Source: Akkermansia sp. (GTDB taxonomy: Bacteria > Verrucomicrobiota > Verrucomicrobiia > Verrucomicrobiales > Akkermansiaceae). Taken from it: a stretch of 64,000 nucleotides of DNA. How positions within the stretch are numbered: the stretch's first letter is position 1; every line of letters starts with the position of its first letter. The notes beneath the pieces were generated by a model that had not been told where the DNA came from, did not search any database, and saw nothing but the letters and a program-made list of their open reading frames with translations. The stretch covers positions 3,820-67,819 of the forward strand of contig JBJEVK010000048.1 of the NCBI GenBank assembly GCA_051884295.1, written 5' to 3'. Made by a program: the position numbers and the translations under genes. This document shows positions 20,025 to 46,831 of the stretch, piece after piece.

Positions 20025-21119
20025 ATGAGCAACAAAATTGACCACTATTTCCGCATTCTGGTGGAGCAGGGCGGTTCTGACCTGCACCTGTCGGAGGGGC
20101 AGCCCGCTAAAATCCGCGTCCACGGCTCCATTGTGCCCGTGGAGGACAGCGTGCTGACCCACGAGCAGATGGTGGAGCTGATGCAGCCCATCTGCCCGCC
20201 CAAGCTTTGGGCGCAGTACACCGAGGGCGGGGATGCCGACTTTGCCTACGAGATGGATGAAACCTCGCGTTTTCGCTGCAACTACATGAAGCAGCAGCGC
20301 GGCTATTGCTGCGTGTTCCGTCTCATCCCGACCAAGATCCTGACGCTGGAGCAGCTCAACGTGCCCGAGCAAATCAAGAAATTCGGTGAGATGAAGTCCG
20401 GCCTCGTGCTGGTGACGGGGCCGACGGGCTCGGGCAAATCGACCACGCTGGCCGCCATCATTGATTACATCAACACGAACTACTCGCGCCACATCATCAC
20501 GGTGGAGGAGCCCATCGAGTTCGTGCACCCCAGCAAGAAGAGCATCATCACCCAGCGCGAGGTGCCCAACAACTGCCCGACCTTCGCGGACGGTCTGCGC
20601 GCCTCGCTGCGCGAGGATACGGATATCGTGCTGGTGGGCGAAATGCGCGATTTGGAGACCATTTCGCTGGCGCTGACGGCGGCGGAGACAGGGCTGCTCG
20701 TGTTCGGTACCCTGCACACGAACAACGCGCGCAAGACGGTGGATCGTATCATCGACGTGTTCCCCGCCGAGCAGCAGGCGCAGGCGCGCACCATGCTGGC
20801 GGGCTCGCTGCGCGGCGTGGTGGCGCAGTTGCTCATGAAGCGCTGCGACAAGCCGGGGCGCGTGGCCGTCAACGAAATCCTCTTCGCCACGCCCGCCGTG
20901 TCGGCCATCATCCGCGAGGGCGCAACGCAGAAGCTGGCGGATGTCATCGTGGGCGGCAAGCAGCTGGGTATGCAGTTCATGGACGATGCCATTTGGGAAA
21001 AACTGCTCGCCGGGCAGGTGTCGCCCGAAGAGGCTTACATGAAAGCCATCGACAAGAAGCGCTTCCAGAATTTCCTGCCTCCCGAGAGTGCGGCCTTGGC
21101 CAACGCCGGCGGCGCATAA
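20025..21119 (+). CDS. pilT: Type IV pilus twitching motility ATPase PilT
   Basis: GSDLHL, GPTGSGKSTT, EEPIE, VGEMRD, TLHT. Confidence 0.92.
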   Translation: MSNKIDHYFRILVEQGGSDLHLSEGQPAKIRVHGSIVPVEDSVLTHEQMVELMQPICPPKLWAQYTEGGDADFAYEMDETSRFRCNYMKQQRGYCCVFRLIPTKILTLEQLNVPEQIKKFGEMKSGLVLVTGPTGSGKSTTLAAIIDYINTNYSRHIITVEEPIEFVHPSKKSIITQREVPNNCPTFADGLRASLREDTDIVLVGEMRDLETISLALTAAETGLLVFGTLHTNNARKTVDRIIDVFPAEQQAQARTMLAGSLRGVVAQLLMKRCDKPGRVAVNEILFATPAVSAIIREGATQKLADVIVGGKQLGMQFMDDAIWEKLLAGQVSPEEAYMKAIDKKRFQNFLPPESAALANAGGA

Positions 21120-21202
21120 AGCCGTTGCCGCATCCGTGGCTGCCGAGCGAGCGCGTCCTCCCTGTGTCGGGGGATGCGCTCCTGCTTTTTGGGTGCTGCG
21201 CC

Positions 21203-22228
21203 TCAGTTGTAGAGGTCGATGCCGAGCTTGGCCAAATCGCTCAGCGAGAGGGAGCAGGGGTCGGGCGCGACCCAGTGACCGGGCTCGATTTCCTGCGGGG
21301 TCAGATCCATGCCGTAGGTGACCTCGAGGTAAGGGTGGTTGATGCGCCGCCCGAAGGCGCTGCCCGGCGGCGGGTCAATGGGGGAGGGTACATCGCCCGG
21401 CAGGATGGGGATGTGGCGCCTCTGCATCGGGTCGGGGACGGGGATGGCGGAGAGCAGCGCCTTGGTGTAGGCGTGGCGCGGGCGGTGGTAGAGCGCCTTG
21501 GCCGGCGCCATCTCGACAATTTTGCCGAGGTACATGACGGCCACGCGGTCGGAAATATGGCGCACGACGGAAAGATCGTGCGAGATGAAGAGGTAGGCCA
21601 TTTTCAGCTCACGCTGCAGGTCGAGCAGCAGGTTGAGTACCTGAGACTGCACGGAGACATCCAGCGCGCTGACGGGTTCATCGAGCACCAGCAGCTTGGG
21701 GCCCAGCGCGATGGCGCGGGCGATGCCGATGCGCTGGCGCTGCCCGCCCGAAAATTCGTGCGGGAACTTGTCGGCGGCGGAGGCGGGCAGCCCCACGAGG
21801 TCGAGCAGCAGCTCCACCCGCTTGCGGCGCGAGGCGCGCGTGCCGAGCCCGTGGATTTCCAGCGGTTCCGCAATCAGGTGGCGCACATCCATGCGCGGGT
21901 TGAGCGATTCAGCCGGGTCTTGGAATACCATCTGCACGCGGCGGCGCAGCTTGCGCAGCGCCCACTGCGAGCGGTGGGTGATGTCCTGCCCCATGAAGCG
22001 GATGCAGCCGTCCGTGGGATTGAGCAGGCGCACGATGCAGCGCCCGATGGTGCTCTTGCCGCAGCCGCTCTCGCCCACAAGCCCCAGCGTCTCGCCCGGG
22101 GCGATGGAGAAGGAGACATCATCCACCGCCTTGAGGAGGCCGCCTTGCCTGCCCGTTGCGCGGCGCTGCACGGGGAAGTGCATCCGCAGTCGGTTCACTT
22201 CGAGAATGTGGGTGGGAGCGGCACGCAT
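21203..22228 (-). CDS. Oligopeptide/dipeptide ABC transporter ATP-binding protein (OppF/AppF-like)
   Basis: GESGCGKST, FSGGQRQR, LDEPVSALD, HAYTKALLSAIP. Confidence 0.93.
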   Translation of the reverse strand: MRAAPTHILEVNRLRMHFPVQRRATGRQGGLLKAVDDVSFSIAPGETLGLVGESGCGKSTIGRCIVRLLNPTDGCIRFMGQDITHRSQWALRKLRRRVQMVFQDPAESLNPRMDVRHLIAEPLEIHGLGTRASRRKRVELLLDLVGLPASAADKFPHEFSGGQRQRIGIARAIALGPKLLVLDEPVSALDVSVQSQVLNLLLDLQRELKMAYLFISHDLSVVRHISDRVAVMYLGKIVEMAPAKALYHRPRHAYTKALLSAIPVPDPMQRRHIPILPGDVPSPIDPPPGSAFGRRINHPYLEVTYGMDLTPQEIEPGHWVAPDPCSLSLSDLAKLGIDLYN

Positions 22229-22252
22229 GGAGGGTGGGGGAGAACGCACGCT

Positions 22253-22281
22253 ATTCTATCACGCCCCCCGCACGCTGGCAA
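22253..22281 (-). promoter_or_regulatory. Sigma70-like promoter for the ABC ATPase gene
   Basis: Minus strand TTGCCA-17-TAGAAT with TGn. Confidence 0.6.
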
Positions 22282-22639
22282 GCGGCAAAAACAACGCGCG
22301 CAGCGACCGCTCATTGCAAATTCCTCACTCTGGATGATCAGCATGTTTCGAGCGGTATCAACAAAGGGTATCTGCGCGGGAAACTGCCCAGCGGCTCGGG
22401 CTTCCACTGTTGTCGCGTTTACAGATCGGCGGGTTACCCGCCTCAATACTCAGTAGGAAAGCCTTACAACCCTTGAATAGGCACTGTGTTGCGGTAGTGT
22501 CCCGATTATTGACTTATTCATAATTTATTTATTGTCTGTATACTACAACGAGCGATCCAATGCTCGATGAGTTCTCTTTGACATTCTGAAAACCTTCGAT
22601 ACCCGGCAGATTTGAAATTACACCGTGGAGGGTGGATAT

Positions 22640-22785
22640 AGCATTTTGAATGCTGTAGCAAGACTATTTATGCAAGACGCAGCTAATGAGCGTGTTGTGT
22701 TTTTTCTAATTGACAAAGTTCGTCGGCAATCATTTATATCTCGCTGGCTATCTGCAGACTGTACCATAACAGCATTCAAAATGCT
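22640..22785. promoter_or_regulatory. Putative invertible promoter segment A
   Basis: Perfect 17-bp inverted repeat AGCATTTTGAATGCTGT (22640-22656) / ACAGCATTCAAAATGCT (22769-22785) around 112 bp; TATAAT abuts the right repeat (22786-22791). Confidence 0.75.
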
Positions 22786-22801
22786 TATAATGCCTTTTGT
22801 T

Positions 22802-23770
22802 ATGCTGCAAATTTCTACGGAGGAATCTCGGTTGATTAACATCGGACGATTATGCGGGGTGTTGGGGGTGGTGGCTATTCACTGTCGCCTTAATTCTCCC
22901 GTTATTGTCTCTCAAGTGCCCGAAGAGTTGTTGGAGCAGGTGCATTCGTGGTATTGTCTGCTTACTTTTTTCCCGGCATTGCCGATGTTGTTCATTTTGT
23001 CCGGCTACCTGTTCTTCCGCGATGTGGGGGAGGTTTATGGGTGGAAGGAGAATTATTGGATGAAGCTGAAGCGGCGTGGATTGTCGCTTGGCCTTTTTTT
23101 TGTTTTTTGGACCGTGGGTGGTTTTTTGTTTAATGTGTTCATTAGGAAAAATATGCCGGAAGGGGTGACGATTGAGAGGTTTTTATACTCCGGAATGGGT
23201 ATGTGGTATATACGCTCTTTGATGTGTTTTTCCCTCCTGTCTCCGTTGTATTATTTTATCGTCCGCTATCTGAAGCACCTGACTCCCGTCGTTTGCGTAC
23301 TCCTCTTTCCTGTGATACCTATTAACTTTGTGTGGTTTAATGTATACATCCTGTTGGGAGCCTACCTGGCTTATCACGGTATTTCGCTGATGAAAATCGC
23401 TTCGCTGTTGGATTGGAGGATGGCGGTGATAGCTTATTTTGGGATGATGGTTGCTTCTGCCTTTTGGGGGATTCATGTTCCGTGTCTCGTTACCATATTT
23501 GTCGCGTTGGCTGTTTGCCGGGGTATTCTGTTGTGTGTTCCGATACCGACGAGCTTCGTTGCCGGTTCGACATTTATCTATGTGGCTCATTTTTACATTG
23601 TCGGCGGAATGAAAAAAGGTCTTTTCACCTTGTTGCCTCATGAGTTTCCTTATTATCTTCTGAATATGTTGGTGAATTTCACGGTGACACCGATGATTTG
23701 TATTGCTGTATATATTGTTATCCGTCGTTTCCCACGTGTGTGTATGCTGATGACCGGGGGGCGGGGATAA
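22802..23770 (+). CDS. Acyltransferase family 3 (O-acetyltransferase-like) membrane protein, AT-rich
   Basis: N-terminal INIGRLCGVLGVVAIH, LFILSGYLF, MWYIRSL, STFIYVAH, about 10 hydrophobic segments. The ORF-track start at 22625 runs through the invertible segment, so the start is placed at MLQIS. Confidence 0.85.
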   Translation: MLQISTEESRLINIGRLCGVLGVVAIHCRLNSPVIVSQVPEELLEQVHSWYCLLTFFPALPMLFILSGYLFFRDVGEVYGWKENYWMKLKRRGLSLGLFFVFWTVGGFLFNVFIRKNMPEGVTIERFLYSGMGMWYIRSLMCFSLLSPLYYFIVRYLKHLTPVVCVLLFPVIPINFVWFNVYILLGAYLAYHGISLMKIASLLDWRMAVIAYFGMMVASAFWGIHVPCLVTIFVALAVCRGILLCVPIPTSFVAGSTFIYVAHFYIVGGMKKGLFTLLPHEFPYYLLNMLVNFTVTPMICIAVYIVIRRFPRVCMLMTGGRG

Positions 23771-23793
23771 AATGCAGCACCGGACGGATGTGC

Positions 23794-23826
23794 AAAAAAA
23801 CACCTTACGATGTTACTCGTAAGGTG
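23794..23826 (-). terminator. Rho-independent terminator of leuS
   Basis: CACCTTACGA/TCGTAAGGTG 10-bp stem followed by T7 on the minus strand. Confidence 0.8.
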
Positions 23827-23858
23827 CTGAGGATGAGGCTTGCAGGACGCTCGGAAAA

Positions 23859-42640: not shown

Positions 42641-42817
42641 TACAGCCTTGTTCATGCTGTGTCAAGGTGGAATCGTGTATCATTTTGTAAAAATGTTAGC
42701 GTTGAATGCTTTGCGGTGAACAGGCATGGGACGGCAGCTTGCGTGCGTCGAGCTGTTCAAGCTGACTTAGTGATTGATTTTCAATGAACTCATCAACACA
42801 GCATGAACAATGCTGTA
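42641..42817. promoter_or_regulatory. Putative invertible promoter segment B
   Basis: 21/22-bp inverted repeat TACAGCCTTGTTCATGCTGTGT (42641-42662) / ACACAGCATGAACAATGCTGTA (42796-42817) around 133 bp. Confidence 0.75.
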
Positions 42818-42886: not shown

Positions 42887-45800
42887 ATGAAACTCCATTT
42901 ACCTAAACTGTTGTTGCTGTCATTGTTGAGTATTTACGCCGATGCGGCCACTGCAAATAAGCTTGTTGTTCCCTCCGCAATCATCTCGGTTGAGGCCGAT
43001 CAACAAAAAACTCTCTCCTCCGATGAGGCGCCCGGCTCATTTTACACCTTGGCAAAGGATGGCAGCGGAACCCTCACGGTGACAGGAGACGTGACGCGAA
43101 ACGGCGCTTTATATGTGCGCGAGGGAACGGTTCTCGTCGGAGACGGGGGACAGACGACAAGCAATCTGAAGCTGAAACCGTCCGGTTCGGGATCTACCGG
43201 CCGTTACACAGCGCTGGGCGTTGCCGGCCGGGATGCCCTGATGATTTTTGATGGCGGAAACTATACGTCCGGCACCGAATCCGCGCACTATGTCGGCGGG
43301 TTGGATGGCAACGGGCGCTTGGAGATTCGCAATGGTTCGACCGTTGATATGGGATCCGGTTTGCGGTTTTCCATCGGTGATCACTCCTTGGAGTATGTCG
43401 AGTCACGGGCGGAAAGCAATGGGGGTTATTGGTCCACCATGAATGATCTGACCACGGCCGGAGTCGGCGATGAGAAAATTCTCGAGAACCGCTATGTCGG
43501 CACCTATAGTCAGGCGGAGAACGGGAGCGGGCAGACCTTCGGCCGAGGGGATATCGTGGTCAGCGGTGGATCCACCTTCACGGTAAGCTGCGGAGATTTC
43601 TTGATGTCGGAAGCTTCACTGACCGCTGAGGGCGCCGGCACCATGGTGCAGATCCAAGGAGCCGCCGATTTGGGTAAGGGCGAAAACTCGACCAGCCGCA
43701 TTGCGGTGCTTGGCGGAGCCACTATGGAGTTTAATCTCAAGGGTTTCGATGCGAACACTGGCGTGAGCTCTTCATTCTACCTCACGATTCAGGGGGAGGG
43801 GTCGGTGATGAGACATGTGTCCGGAGACTACAAAGCTGAGTTTGGTAGGTTTTTGCATTCTACTTCCGTTATCGAGGTGTGCGAGGGCGGGAAGCTGCTT
43901 CTGGAGAATGTGATGTCACGGTTCGGCCTCTATTCCGACATAGGTTCACGTGTCTCGCTTTCTGTGGATGCTCTATCTCAGATGACAGCCAGTGATATGG
44001 AGGTGGGCTACGGGGCGGTGGTTGACAACAAGGGGCAAATGACGGTGCAGAGCCTCATCCAAACAGCCGGGCAGATCACCAACAGCGGTACGATGGAGAT
44101 TCTCGGAACCCTTTCCGTGAAGGAGAATGGCAAGCTGACGGTGTCGGAATCCGGTATCCTGAAGGTGGCCGGAGCGCTGACAAACGCGGGAACGATTCAA
44201 CTGTACGGACAGAGTGAGCTCGCAGGCACATTGACGAATAGCGGTACACTGCAACTATACAAGGGGTTGGATGCCTCCTCTCTGGATGGTGATGGCGAAA
44301 CCGAGATTTGCATCAACCGTGGCACACGCGATTTCATCGGCACCGGGTCGGCGGTGCTTTCGCTCAATACTCTGTCGGATGACCAAACGGTGAGCGTCAC
44401 CATTGACCTGAAAGATCCGTTAAGCCTCATCGGCAAGAGGTATGACTTTTTGGAGGTCGGCGGGGTGAAGAAAGCCCTTAACTGCAACGACATCAAAGCT
44501 GAGCATGCTGAGAATGCCACCTTTGACTGGGATAATTATAATGGGCTGCTGTCCTACGACGGCGGCAAGCTCGGCATGGGGTCCACCGACTTTGACAGCG
44601 CTACCAATACCCTGACCAACTGCGGCTTCAAATACTGGGTGGATGCGGTGAATCAAAAAAACATCGGCGGCGTGAACTACGCCCCCGGGATGGGGTATAT
44701 TGACATCGGAAACACCCCCGACGGTGAATATCGCTATGTGACCATTCCTTCGACCGATGGGAGCGGAAGCGTCATGAGCGTCTTCTCCCAAAATGTCAGC
44801 GCGGCGGGCGAGTACACCTGCGCTCTCGTCTTCGCGGGCATGGAGCAAAGTGACGGCACCTATACACCCGTGCAAGTCAACGGCACCATCCTCCTGCTCA
44901 ACCGGGAAACCACCCTGAGCGGCGACCCCAACAAGGAGTCCGTATTCGGTTTCGGTTTCGAGAGTGCGGGGAATGCGATTGGCACAAACGGTCTGCAGAA
45001 AGGCATGATCGACATTGCTCTGGTCAAGGATTCGGTGACCATGAAAGACCTGACGATGAATGTCGGCCAGCGTCTCGAAGTGGACGCCGGACAGTCGCTG
45101 ACGCTCACCAACACCATCCTCAACATCGGCGGCGGCGATGCCAAGGATTTGTCGACCATCACCGTCGGCGGTGCAACCCACCAACTGGGGAGCAGCGATG
45201 TTCTGAAGCTCGACAGCCAAAAAACGACCATCGCCGACGGCGCCACGCTGAAGCTGACGAACAGCACGCTGGCGGGCACCAAGCTGACGAACGGCAGCGG
45301 TGATATTCAGGTGGGCGCCGCCACCATCACCCTGAAGGACAGTAAGCTGGGCAGCAGCGATGCTGCGGCCATGAGCATCACGCTCACCGACAGCAGAGTC
45401 TCCGGCACGGGCTCGATGCACAAGGTGAGCATGAACGGCGGCAGCCTGACCATCGGCAACTCCCCCGGGCAGATGAGCATCGAGGGCGTGAGCGCCACCA
45501 ACAGCTCATGGTCTTTCTACTTCATCACCGATGCCCCGACCTGGAACCCGACCGGAGCCAACGACACGACGAACCCAACGACCGGCGCCTTCTCCCAGCT
45601 CAAGGCTCTGAGTGGCAACAGCGCCTCGGGCATCACCGTGAGCATCGTCTACGAAGATGCCTCCGGCGCGGCCAAGAGCAAGGAGGATTTTACCGCCACC
45701 CTCGGCGCGGGCTTCAGCGTCAAGCTCATTGACGGGGTGGAGAATTTGACGTTCAGCGGCAACAATGTCGTGGACAGAAACAGCCTGCCGACCCTGCGGG

Positions 45801-46831
45801 AGGGGCTGTTCTGGGACACCGACAGCCTCTTCCGCACCGGCTGCCTCTATGTCATCTCCCACGCCGACATCATGGTGGCCGATGCGGGGCGCCTGGCCAA
45901 CACCCTGGTGAGCGCGGCGGACACCACGGTGTTCTTCGGGCGCATGGCGCGCGAGCACTACAAGGATGCGCGCCGCCAGCGCGCCAATGTGTGGGCGGGC
46001 GGCTTCGGCACCTACCTCAACCACGCCGACGCGGGCGGCCGCAGCGGCTTTGAGTACAACACCCACGGCTACGCCATCGGCGCCGACACGGAACTCGCGG
46101 AGGGGCTGGTCGCGGGGCTGGGGCTCGGGCAGAGCTTCGGTAAGCACAAGCCCAACCGGGGCGATGCCTTCTACAACGCGGGCGAGATTGACCAGGACGG
46201 ACTGCTGGCCGCGCTCTACGCCGCCAAGGCCTTTGCCTGCGCCAAGAGCGATAACGAGCTACTGCTGGACGGCTATGTGGCCTACGGTCGCTACGACAAC
46301 AGCAGCACGCGCCGCAGCCTGTCCAACGGCAGCACGGCCCGGGCAGATTGGAAGGAGAATACGCTGGCGGCGGGCGCCACGCTGACGCGCCTCATCAAGC
46401 TGCAGGGCGGCGCGGAGCTGACCCCCTTTGTGGGGGCGGAATACCGTTGGGCAGACATGGAGGACGCGACGGAGCACAACCACTCGAGCATGCGCTACGA
46501 GGGCTCGGCCTACCAAAACCTGTCGCTGAGCGTGGGCATCGGCTGCCGCAAGAGCTACGCGCTGACGGCGGTGCAGAAGCTGACGCCCTATGCGAGCGTG
46601 GCCTATGTGGGCGATGCGCTGCGCGAGGACGGCGAGGTGACGGCGCACGGCTCTGCGGGCGAGGTGCTGCGCGAGAAGTCGGCGGCGCACGGGCGCCACG
46701 CGCTGCAGCTGAATGCGGGAGCGCTGTGGCAAATCACGGACGAGTGGGCAGCGCGCGCGGGCTACACGGGCGAGCTGCGCGAGGGCGCGGATGACCACAA
46801 CGTGAACCTGAGCGCCACCTACAGCTTCTGA
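42887..46831 (+). CDS. Autotransporter (type Va) with beta-helix passenger
   Basis: MKLHLPKLL signal, LAKDGSGTLTVTG passenger repeat, C-terminal barrel (NVWAGGFG...NLSATYSF). Confidence 0.9.
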   Translation: MKLHLPKLLLLSLLSIYADAATANKLVVPSAIISVEADQQKTLSSDEAPGSFYTLAKDGSGTLTVTGDVTRNGALYVREGTVLVGDGGQTTSNLKLKPSGSGSTGRYTALGVAGRDALMIFDGGNYTSGTESAHYVGGLDGNGRLEIRNGSTVDMGSGLRFSIGDHSLEYVESRAESNGGYWSTMNDLTTAGVGDEKILENRYVGTYSQAENGSGQTFGRGDIVVSGGSTFTVSCGDFLMSEASLTAEGAGTMVQIQGAADLGKGENSTSRIAVLGGATMEFNLKGFDANTGVSSSFYLTIQGEGSVMRHVSGDYKAEFGRFLHSTSVIEVCEGGKLLLENVMSRFGLYSDIGSRVSLSVDALSQMTASDMEVGYGAVVDNKGQMTVQSLIQTAGQITNSGTMEILGTLSVKENGKLTVSESGILKVAGALTNAGTIQLYGQSELAGTLTNSGTLQLYKGLDASSLDGDGETEICINRGTRDFIGTGSAVLSLNTLSDDQTVSVTIDLKDPLSLIGKRYDFLEVGGVKKALNCNDIKAEHAENATFDWDNYNGLLSYDGGKLGMGSTDFDSATNTLTNCGFKYWVDAVNQKNIGGVNYAPGMGYIDIGNTPDGEYRYVTIPSTDGSGSVMSVFSQNVSAAGEYTCALVFAGMEQSDGTYTPVQVNGTILLLNRETTLSGDPNKESVFGFGFESAGNAIGTNGLQKGMIDIALVKDSVTMKDLTMNVGQRLEVDAGQSLTLTNTILNIGGGDAKDLSTITVGGATHQLGSSDVLKLDSQKTTIADGATLKLTNSTLAGTKLTNGSGDIQVGAATITLKDSKLGSSDAAAMSITLTDSRVSGTGSMHKVSMNGGSLTIGNSPGQMSIEGVSATNSSWSFYFITDAPTWNPTGANDTTNPTTGAFSQLKALSGNSASGITVSIVYEDASGAAKSKEDFTATLGAGFSVKLIDGVENLTFSGNNVVDRNSLPTLREGLFWDTDSLFRTGCLYVISHADIMVADAGRLANTLVSAADTTVFFGRMAREHYKDARRQRANVWAGGFGTYLNHADAGGRSGFEYNTHGYAIGADTELAEGLVAGLGLGQSFGKHKPNRGDAFYNAGEIDQDGLLAALYAAKAFACAKSDNELLLDGYVAYGRYDNSSTRRSLSNGSTARADWKENTLAAGATLTRLIKLQGGAELTPFVGAEYRWADMEDATEHNHSSMRYEGSAYQNLSLSVGIGCRKSYALTAVQKLTPYASVAYVGDALREDGEVTAHGSAGEVLREKSAAHGRHALQLNAGALWQITDEWAARAGYTGELREGADDHNVNLSATYSF

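Follow-up and report, generated by a model that had tools for sequence, protein, structure and literature searches.

The 64,000-nt window analysed here belongs to contig JBJEVK010000048.1 of Akkermansia sp. GCA_051884295.1, a 1.9-Mb metagenome-assembled genome of an uncultured gut Akkermansia that is divided into 116 contigs and is hereafter called G000; the window is its contig C48, and coordinates without a contig name are positions in this window. Our subject is a short inverted-repeat element, inverton A, which lies ahead of a gene for a membrane acyltransferase and which is, with good probability, a site-specific DNA inversion switch of the type known from Akkermansia. Its two arms, AGCATTTTGAATGCTGT at 22640-22656 and ACAGCATTCAAAATGCT at 22769-22785, are 17 nt long, 100% complementary and spaced by 112 nt, and a TATAAT hexamer (22786-22791, plus strand) abuts the right arm ahead of an ATG at 22802. 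A first-pass annotation of this DNA had described both the perfect 17-bp repeat enclosing 112 bp and the adjoining TATAAT, and the same arms, coordinates and motifs were recovered from the sequence. Matches to the arms at up to three mismatches number three in the window against 0.15 expected, a count that 0 of 100 shuffles reached, and the third of these matches is part of another element, near 42.7 kb. Both arms are close to palindromic, of the form AGCATT-NNN-AATGCT with the triplet TTG/CAA, and each forms part of a longer putative recombination core. The left core is the 19-nt ATAGCATT-TTG-AATGCTGT (22638-22656, perfect arm 22640-22656), and the right core is ACAGCATT-CAA-AATGCTTA (22769-22787, perfect arm 22769-22785), which would serve as a 16-nt promoter spacer after inversion. 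Between them lies the invertible interior of 112 bp (22657-22768), of which only the left end is conserved within the site family described below; there a -35-like hexamer, TTGCTA (22656-22661, minus strand), is preceded on its own strand by the A/T-rich stretch ATAAATAGTC.

The gene downstream (22832-23770, plus strand) encodes a membrane acyltransferase of 312 aa from a TTG start at 22832, with a Shine-Dalgarno sequence GGAGGA (22819-22824, plus strand) 7 nt ahead of it and an alternative in-frame start at the ATG 22802. This TTG is also the start in the gene call on one public contig, while exact-product look-ups of the 322-aa version from ATG 22802 and of a 381-aa version from GTG 22625 found neither on record. 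The gene had been annotated from the sequence as an O-acyltransferase, and membership in Acyl_transf_3 is borne out by Pfam: the product matches PF01757 with 42.6 bits against a cut-off of 31, and its residues 12-301 cover profile positions 4-319 of 326. The product has no match in NCBIfam, and the assignment therefore stops short of a specific subfamily or substrate. Homologues with 36-41% identity are limited to 6 of 90 further Akkermansia genomes, and the gene is thus regarded as an accessory one.

As assembled, the TATAAT at 22786-22791, which lies outside the invertible segment and is therefore the fixed -10 hexamer of the putative promoter, lacks a matching -35. The first-pass annotation read CCATAA at that position, and this agrees with our promoter scan of the assembled orientation, in which no sigma-70-like site employing the TATAAT was found. 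Inversion of 22657-22768 in silico produced TTGCTA-CAGCATTCAAAATGCT-TATAAT, with a 16-nt spacer and a score of 10/12, which reproduces the flipped junction that the annotation had anticipated. Its further remark, that an internal TTGACA (22710-22715) is accompanied by poor -10 sequences, also holds, since the best of these, TTTATA at a 17-nt spacer, failed the promoter scan.

The core of inverton A is a member of a genome-wide family of sites. A search of G000 for ACAGCATT-NNN-AATGCTGT at up to three mismatches returned 67 sites, versus 1-3 in shuffled genomes, and the sites of G000 make 22 inverted pairs, most of them 122-156 bp apart and one 225 bp apart. The central triplets vary from locus to locus and yet are reverse complements within the pair in 22 of 22 cases. 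At up to one mismatch the motif occurs 38 times in G000, 0-10 times in 24 congeners and 0-1 times in 16 genomes of other families, and the AGCATT-type site motif is confined to the genus Akkermansia; the three closest relatives carry 34-55 sites each at up to two mismatches. The genes beside the 22 switches include about ten for small PEP-CTERM proteins, others for autotransporter-type proteins and two for Acyl_transf_3 enzymes, and further neighbours encode a LicD protein, a polysaccharide deacetylase and a membrane protein with a sulfatase domain.

All 22 pairs share one architecture, in which an A/T-rich stretch followed by CTTGnn stands directly against one of the two cores, while the rest of the interior and its other end are unconserved. 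The -35 hexamers of the family (TTGCTA, TTGACA, TTGATA and similar) share their last base with the start of the core, which provides a spacer of 16-18 nt and the last TA of which, together with the first bases of the flank, makes up the -10. The presence of CTTGnn at an inner end of every pair thus implies that the -35 moves with the invertible segment, that the core acts as the spacer and that the -10 stays fixed. Judged by this layout, the promoter of the family appears to be split across the recombination site, with only its upstream half mobile. At about half of the loci the -35 end is directed toward the gene that is the obvious target, and at the others it is directed away. At inverton A the promoter-bearing end (TTGCTA, minus strand 22661-22656) adjoins the left core and is directed leftward, with the acyltransferase gene behind it. 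The assignment of states follows from the family layout rule combined with this locus, and not from the locus alone, and on this basis inverton A is predicted to be OFF in the assembled orientation and ON when flipped, as the first-pass annotation had proposed. A split promoter in the ON layout is found in another Akkermansia before a homologue of the acyltransferase with 37% identity, where TTGATA, a 17-nt CGGATT-like core and TATACT follow one another. Moreover, if the core doubles as the promoter spacer, the recombinase and RNA polymerase would compete for the same DNA.

Members of the family have inverted in place between related genomes, and this, together with the promoter layout common to the 22 pairs, supports the earlier designation of the element as an inverton. 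At C67:8914/9065, which stands before the second Acyl_transf_3 gene, the 132-bp interior is exactly reverse-complemented in the relative G043 between flanks that are 99% and 92% identical. The pair C29:17571/17694, upstream of a gene for a 1320-aa surface protein, is inverted in G041, where the triplets of both cores have also changed in a compensatory manner, GCG/CGC having become GTG/CAC. The third case, inverted in G042, is the inverton that precedes a recombinase gene on contig C20 and that is considered further below. Furthermore, a contig end is found no more than 200 bp away from 18 of 59 sites, where 2.4% would be expected (P = 2e-15); contig ends fall at cores on C4, C8, C12, C25/C72, C42, C43, the end of C48, C69, C70 and C83/C107, and some of these ends overlap mutually by about 55 nt, exactly across a core. 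Since assemblers are expected to break at such points when both orientations are present, these contig breaks indirectly suggest that the sampled population is mixed in orientation.

The same observations bear on two explanations in which no inversion takes place. The large number of copies, their similar length (122-156 bp) and the conservation of their terminal repeats could suggest a miniature inverted-repeat transposable element (MITE), the arms being its terminal inverted repeats and the promoter facing outward. However, the interiors are unrelated except at the -35 end, the half-sites are kept while the central triplet varies by locus, no target-site duplications were seen at the copies, orthologous copies are inverted in place with their flanks unchanged, and the copies stand systematically ahead of surface-related genes, so that a MITE is very improbable. 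Hardly more credible, and if anything less so, is the idea that the DNA is never rearranged and that the repeats are operators for a dimeric regulator that forms a DNA loop, or else the two strands of a long-range RNA stem in the 5′ leader. The near-palindromic form AGCATT-NNN-AATGCT of each core is indeed what operators often show, but the triplets of the 22 pairs are reverse complements and not identical, a property needless for a pair of operators, and both versions are at odds with the physical inversion of sister loci; for the RNA stem, moreover, a search of 22200-22900 against Rfam gave no match.

As to the enzyme, G000 encodes one serine recombinase (C88, a 453-aa frame) and several tyrosine recombinases. 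The former was set aside as the invertase, though weakly, for it has the look of a large phage-type enzyme and at up to three mismatches no site of the family is found on its contig. Among the tyrosine recombinases, those on C20, C70 and C96, the last found by tblastn, form an Akkermansia-specific group. The candidate that we favour is the divergent tyrosine recombinase at G000:C20:26852-27910, the gene of which is intact and the product of which matches PF00589 with 44.8 bits against a threshold of 27.1. Aligned to XerD (1a0p) and a XerC-like protein (4a8e), it retains Arg-I, Arg-II, the GH histidine and the Tyr, the placement of the Lys being uncertain, and an Asp stands where the HxxR box has its first His (PDVLRH versus PHVLRH).

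The gene is immediately preceded by an inverton of its own (G000:C20:26653-26827), with the cores TATGCTTT-CTG-AATGCAGG and ATTGCATT-CAG-AATGCTGG 137 bp apart and, in G000, with the ON layout, TTGACA adjoining the core nearer the gene. In G041 and G043 this inverton is cleanly deleted, leaving a junction in which the left half of one core is fused to the other core's right half, as recombination between cores aligned in parallel would be expected to produce; the nearly palindromic triplet CTG/CAG may be what allows such an alignment. An inverted-repeat pair occupies the equivalent position at about 22 of 34 homologous recombinase loci across the genus. In the genome G007 the only AGCATT-type site at up to one mismatch is the one before the C20 orthologue, and the same genome carries 62 CGGATT-NNN-AATCCG sites and a more distant recombinase paralogue, termed b, with a switch of AGGATT type. 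The C96 paralogue of G000, on a contig of 2.5 kb, likewise has a switch of its own, of CGGAT type (C96:534-711, GCGGATAGGAAAACCGT / ACGGTTTTCCTATCCGC), with CTTGACA at the gene-proximal core, and the G000 genome contains no other CGGATT-type site and no exact CGGATT-N(1-5)-AATCCG site. This pattern suggests that the promoter of each recombinase paralogue bears the site type on which that paralogue acts, AGCATT for the C20 enzyme and its G007 orthologue and CGGAT or AGGATT for the C96 enzyme and paralogue b. Hence the C20-type enzyme is the likely invertase of inverton A, by an association that falls short of proof.

A mechanism can be proposed on these grounds. A tyrosine recombinase, for which the C20 protein, itself placed behind an inverton of the same type, is the best candidate, would exchange strands within the two cores and so reverse the 112-bp segment. 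With the -35 end at the right core, TTGCTA, the 16 nt of the core and the fixed TATAAT would make up a promoter with a transcription start near 22798, and the acyltransferase would be ON; with the -35 end at the left core, as assembled, the promoter would point away and the gene would be OFF. Individual cells would accordingly carry or lack an acyl modification on a surface or periplasmic glycan, the presumed substrate. A wider proposal, which seems to us plausible but is held tentatively and with some doubt, is that the whole phase-variable surface regulon of this small-genome lineage, with at least 22 switches, works on the AGCATT-type site and that the cognate C20-type enzyme is a self-switching master invertase. 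Such an invertase would be an Akkermansia-specific tyrosine recombinase with Asp at His-II that has its own -35 on an inverton of its own site type. In G007 and G013 the AGCATT-type site occurs mainly or only ahead of recombinase genes.

Several observations weigh against reading inverton A as an active switch of this kind. The element has been seen in one orientation only: the sole other assembly found, a public contig from run SRR30616824, is 100% identical over the aligned inverton region and has it in the same orientation, and a scan of metagenome contigs of the Joint Genome Institute (JGI) for the right junction in an orientation-independent manner gave 0 matches. The contig from SRR30616824 was found through the 312-aa product and possibly derives from the same or a sister sample. 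As the acyltransferase frame stays open after the in silico flip, a flipped contig could be found through the same product, provided that the gene caller kept the TTG start. The closest relatives offer no orthologous inverton A for comparison: G043 does not carry the DNA around it, the contig of G041 begins inside the gene, and the flanks lie on separate contigs in G042. The predicted promoter, moreover, is imperfect, because TTGCTA agrees with the -35 consensus at 4 of 6 positions only and the spacer is of 16 nt rather than 17, and a promoter-like site at 22517-22544 (9/12) and the internal TTGACA could permit some expression in the OFF state. Both cores deviate from the consensus at outer positions (ATAGC... 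and ...GCTTA). Finally, the recombinase is assigned by association only, and G000 has two further members of its family, on C70 and C96.

Part of this could be explained if the element were a frozen relic, that is, a descendant of the inverton family which no longer inverts and which leaves the acyltransferase permanently silent or dependent on another promoter. The single orientation seen so far is in keeping with this, as are the three departures from the consensus summed over both cores, and the deletion of the recombinase's own switch in two of four related genomes indicates that the system does decay. On the other hand, the 17 inner arm positions are perfectly complementary, which would be unexpected in a decaying relic on a recently acquired island, and the unusual outer ends are not private to this locus, given that ...GCTTA is also found in one sister core (C79:6887) and ATAGC... 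in four (C29:24962, C61:177, C92:32918 and C97:39349). The recombinase gene is intact in G000 as well, with its promoter in the ON layout. A relic is thus rather improbable, and a working inversion switch is the reading that we retain.

Considered as such a switch, inverton A is an ordinary but clear Akkermansia inverton that has a variant half-site and belongs to a new lineage. Promoter invertons are already established as a source of surface variation in Akkermansia, and one more before an acyltransferase adds little by itself. In the portion quoted in PMC13343947, Jiang et al. 2019 (Science 363:181) give the inverton motif of Akkermansia muciniphila as CGGATT..AATCCG together with a promoter motif; the A. 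muciniphila invertons make up "inverton group 138" and are enriched near PEP-CTERM genes (PMC11892184), and the inverton of the cps1 capsule locus has been validated experimentally (PMC13343947). For amuc_2098, the acyltransferase of cps1, variation of a homopolymer tract has also been noted as a possibility (PMC13343947). The switches of G000 resemble those of A. muciniphila in belonging to the same genus, in having inverted repeats of about 17 bp around 110-170 bp in dozens of copies per genome, and in the nearly palindromic 6-3-6 core, the triplet of which is specific to the locus and complementary within the pair. They also stand before PEP-CTERM, autotransporter and glycan-modifying genes and carry a promoter motif on the invertible segment, which here is a predicted one. 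They differ in the half-site, which is AGCATT/AATGCT in place of CGGATT/AATCCG (0 exact CGGATT-N(1-5)-AATCCG sites in G000 versus 62 in G007), and in the host, which here is an uncultured lineage with a smaller genome (1.9 Mb) and a higher GC (guanine plus cytosine) content. Because of this difference in half-site, searches tuned to CGGATT would miss all the switches of this lineage.

The literature consulted on Akkermansia invertons, to which Jiang et al. 2019 itself does not belong, names no invertase for the family and contains no explicit statement of a -10 lying outside the invertible segment. The present data provide a specific candidate for this unnamed invertase, one that possibly switches itself, and the family layout, an internal -35 separated by the core from an external -10, offers a simple rule by which ON and OFF can be read from any assembly. 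These two leads, an invertase candidate that may switch itself and a rule for split promoters, are the more interesting ones, and they bear on the family as a whole, not on inverton A in particular.

Systems outside the genus share single features with this arrangement. In Bacteroides fragilis, Mpi, a global serine invertase, acts on the polysaccharide promoter invertons (Krinos 2001 and Coyne 2003, in the form in which PMC11892184 cites them). There, as may also hold for the lineage studied here, one trans-acting invertase serves many dispersed promoter invertons of surface structures, whereas the candidate in G000 is a tyrosine recombinase. The promoter of a Bacteroides inverton lies wholly inside the invertible segment, unlike the present family, in which the -10 is outside. 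The fimS switch of Escherichia coli, operated by FimB and FimE, is a single locus of 314 bp with 9-bp repeats and a complete promoter inside, and it needs IHF and Lrp. It shares with inverton A the inversion of a short promoter segment driven by a tyrosine recombinase, in our case a candidate, and the ON/OFF control of a surface structure, but inverton A has 112 bp, a split promoter and the company of at least 21 other loci in a family of at least 22. In Haemophilus influenzae, the glycan O-acetyltransferase OafA (oafA) is phase-variable by slippage of tetranucleotide repeats. The kind of enzyme under control, an Acyl_transf_3-type membrane acyltransferase, and the variable modification of a surface glycan, which we infer for Akkermansia, are alike in the two cases, while the means are different, being promoter inversion here and repeat slippage within the coding sequence there. 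A parallel to the promoter itself comes from the hybrid promoters of insertion sequences, with a -35 in the end of the element and a -10 in the flank; in both, a promoter is assembled across a recombination junction from a mobile -35 and a fixed -10, although the junction is reversible by inversion here and is not made by transposition.

Inverton A and the acyltransferase gene lie together on a low-GC island of 1534 bp (22305-23838), with about 38-49% GC against 57-69% in the flanks. In the relative G043 the flanks of the island are 94-95% identical to the window and only about 25 bp apart, and the island is therefore absent there; a 24-bp terminator loop stands in its place. Neither flanking direct repeats nor a mobility gene were seen at 22305-23838. 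The right neighbour of the island is the end of leuS, behind which a terminator hairpin with a T-run (23799-23828, minus strand) marks the right island edge. The acyltransferase gene, the putative target of regulation, sits on recently gained DNA, and the inverton system may therefore serve to place newly acquired surface-modifying genes under phase-variable control.

To the left lies a gene for an oligopeptide-type ATP-binding cassette (ABC) ATPase (21203-22249, minus strand), which points away from the inverton and has its own promoter-like site at 22281-22253. A plus-strand open reading frame at 20993-22456 (487 aa) was considered as the upstream gene and rejected; it overlaps the minus-strand ABC ATPase gene, has no match in Pfam or to any family, and is probably not a gene but an artefact of high GC. 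The direction of the ABC ATPase gene raises the question of a two-way toggle, in which the assembled orientation would drive leftward transcription, either of this gene or of a lost or unrecognised one in 22305-22637, and the flipped orientation that of the acyltransferase. The left flank of inverton A reads AATGCTATATCC, and the motif GCTATATCC is met on the gene side at some sister loci (C29:24962, C92:32918 and C97:39349) and in the distal flank of C61:177; in addition, at least one sister pair, C22:11076/11301, lies between two divergent PEP-CTERM genes. Against this, the ABC ATPase gene begins about 390 bp off and keeps the promoter-like site 22281-22253 (10/12), which is in DNA conserved with the island-free relative, no convincing minus-strand reading frame exists in 22305-22637, and the leftward -10 candidates are poor (TATATC at a 15-nt spacer and ATATCC at 16). 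A toggle is therefore unlikely, though less so than a relic, and inverton A is better viewed as a simple ON/OFF switch of the acyltransferase.

The second inverton of the window (42642-42816, cores 42642-42660 and 42798-42816) ends 70 nt before an autotransporter gene (42887-46831, 1314 aa, Pfam Autotransporter). Its TTGACA end faces away from this gene, the OFF layout, and a flip would give TTGACA, 17 nt and TATACG. Elsewhere in G000, the longest member of the family (C22:11076-11319, 225 bp between core starts) is the one between divergent PEP-CTERM genes, which are paralogous and have mutually inverted leaders, and its appearance is that of a toggle selecting one of two surface proteins. 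C83:16-179 has two direct cores (CGG) and a third, inverted one (CCG), and at C29:17571-17992 two complete invertons stand in tandem ahead of one 1320-aa gene; such compound arrangements could have more than two states. The cores at C19:1028/1173 have the triplet TTG/CAA and are equal to those of inverton A at all 17 inner positions, both being perfect matches to the 19-nt consensus, and recombination between these two loci would rearrange the chromosome. In G043, contig C6 unites, at a shared core, sequences that are split over contigs C8 and C61 in G000.

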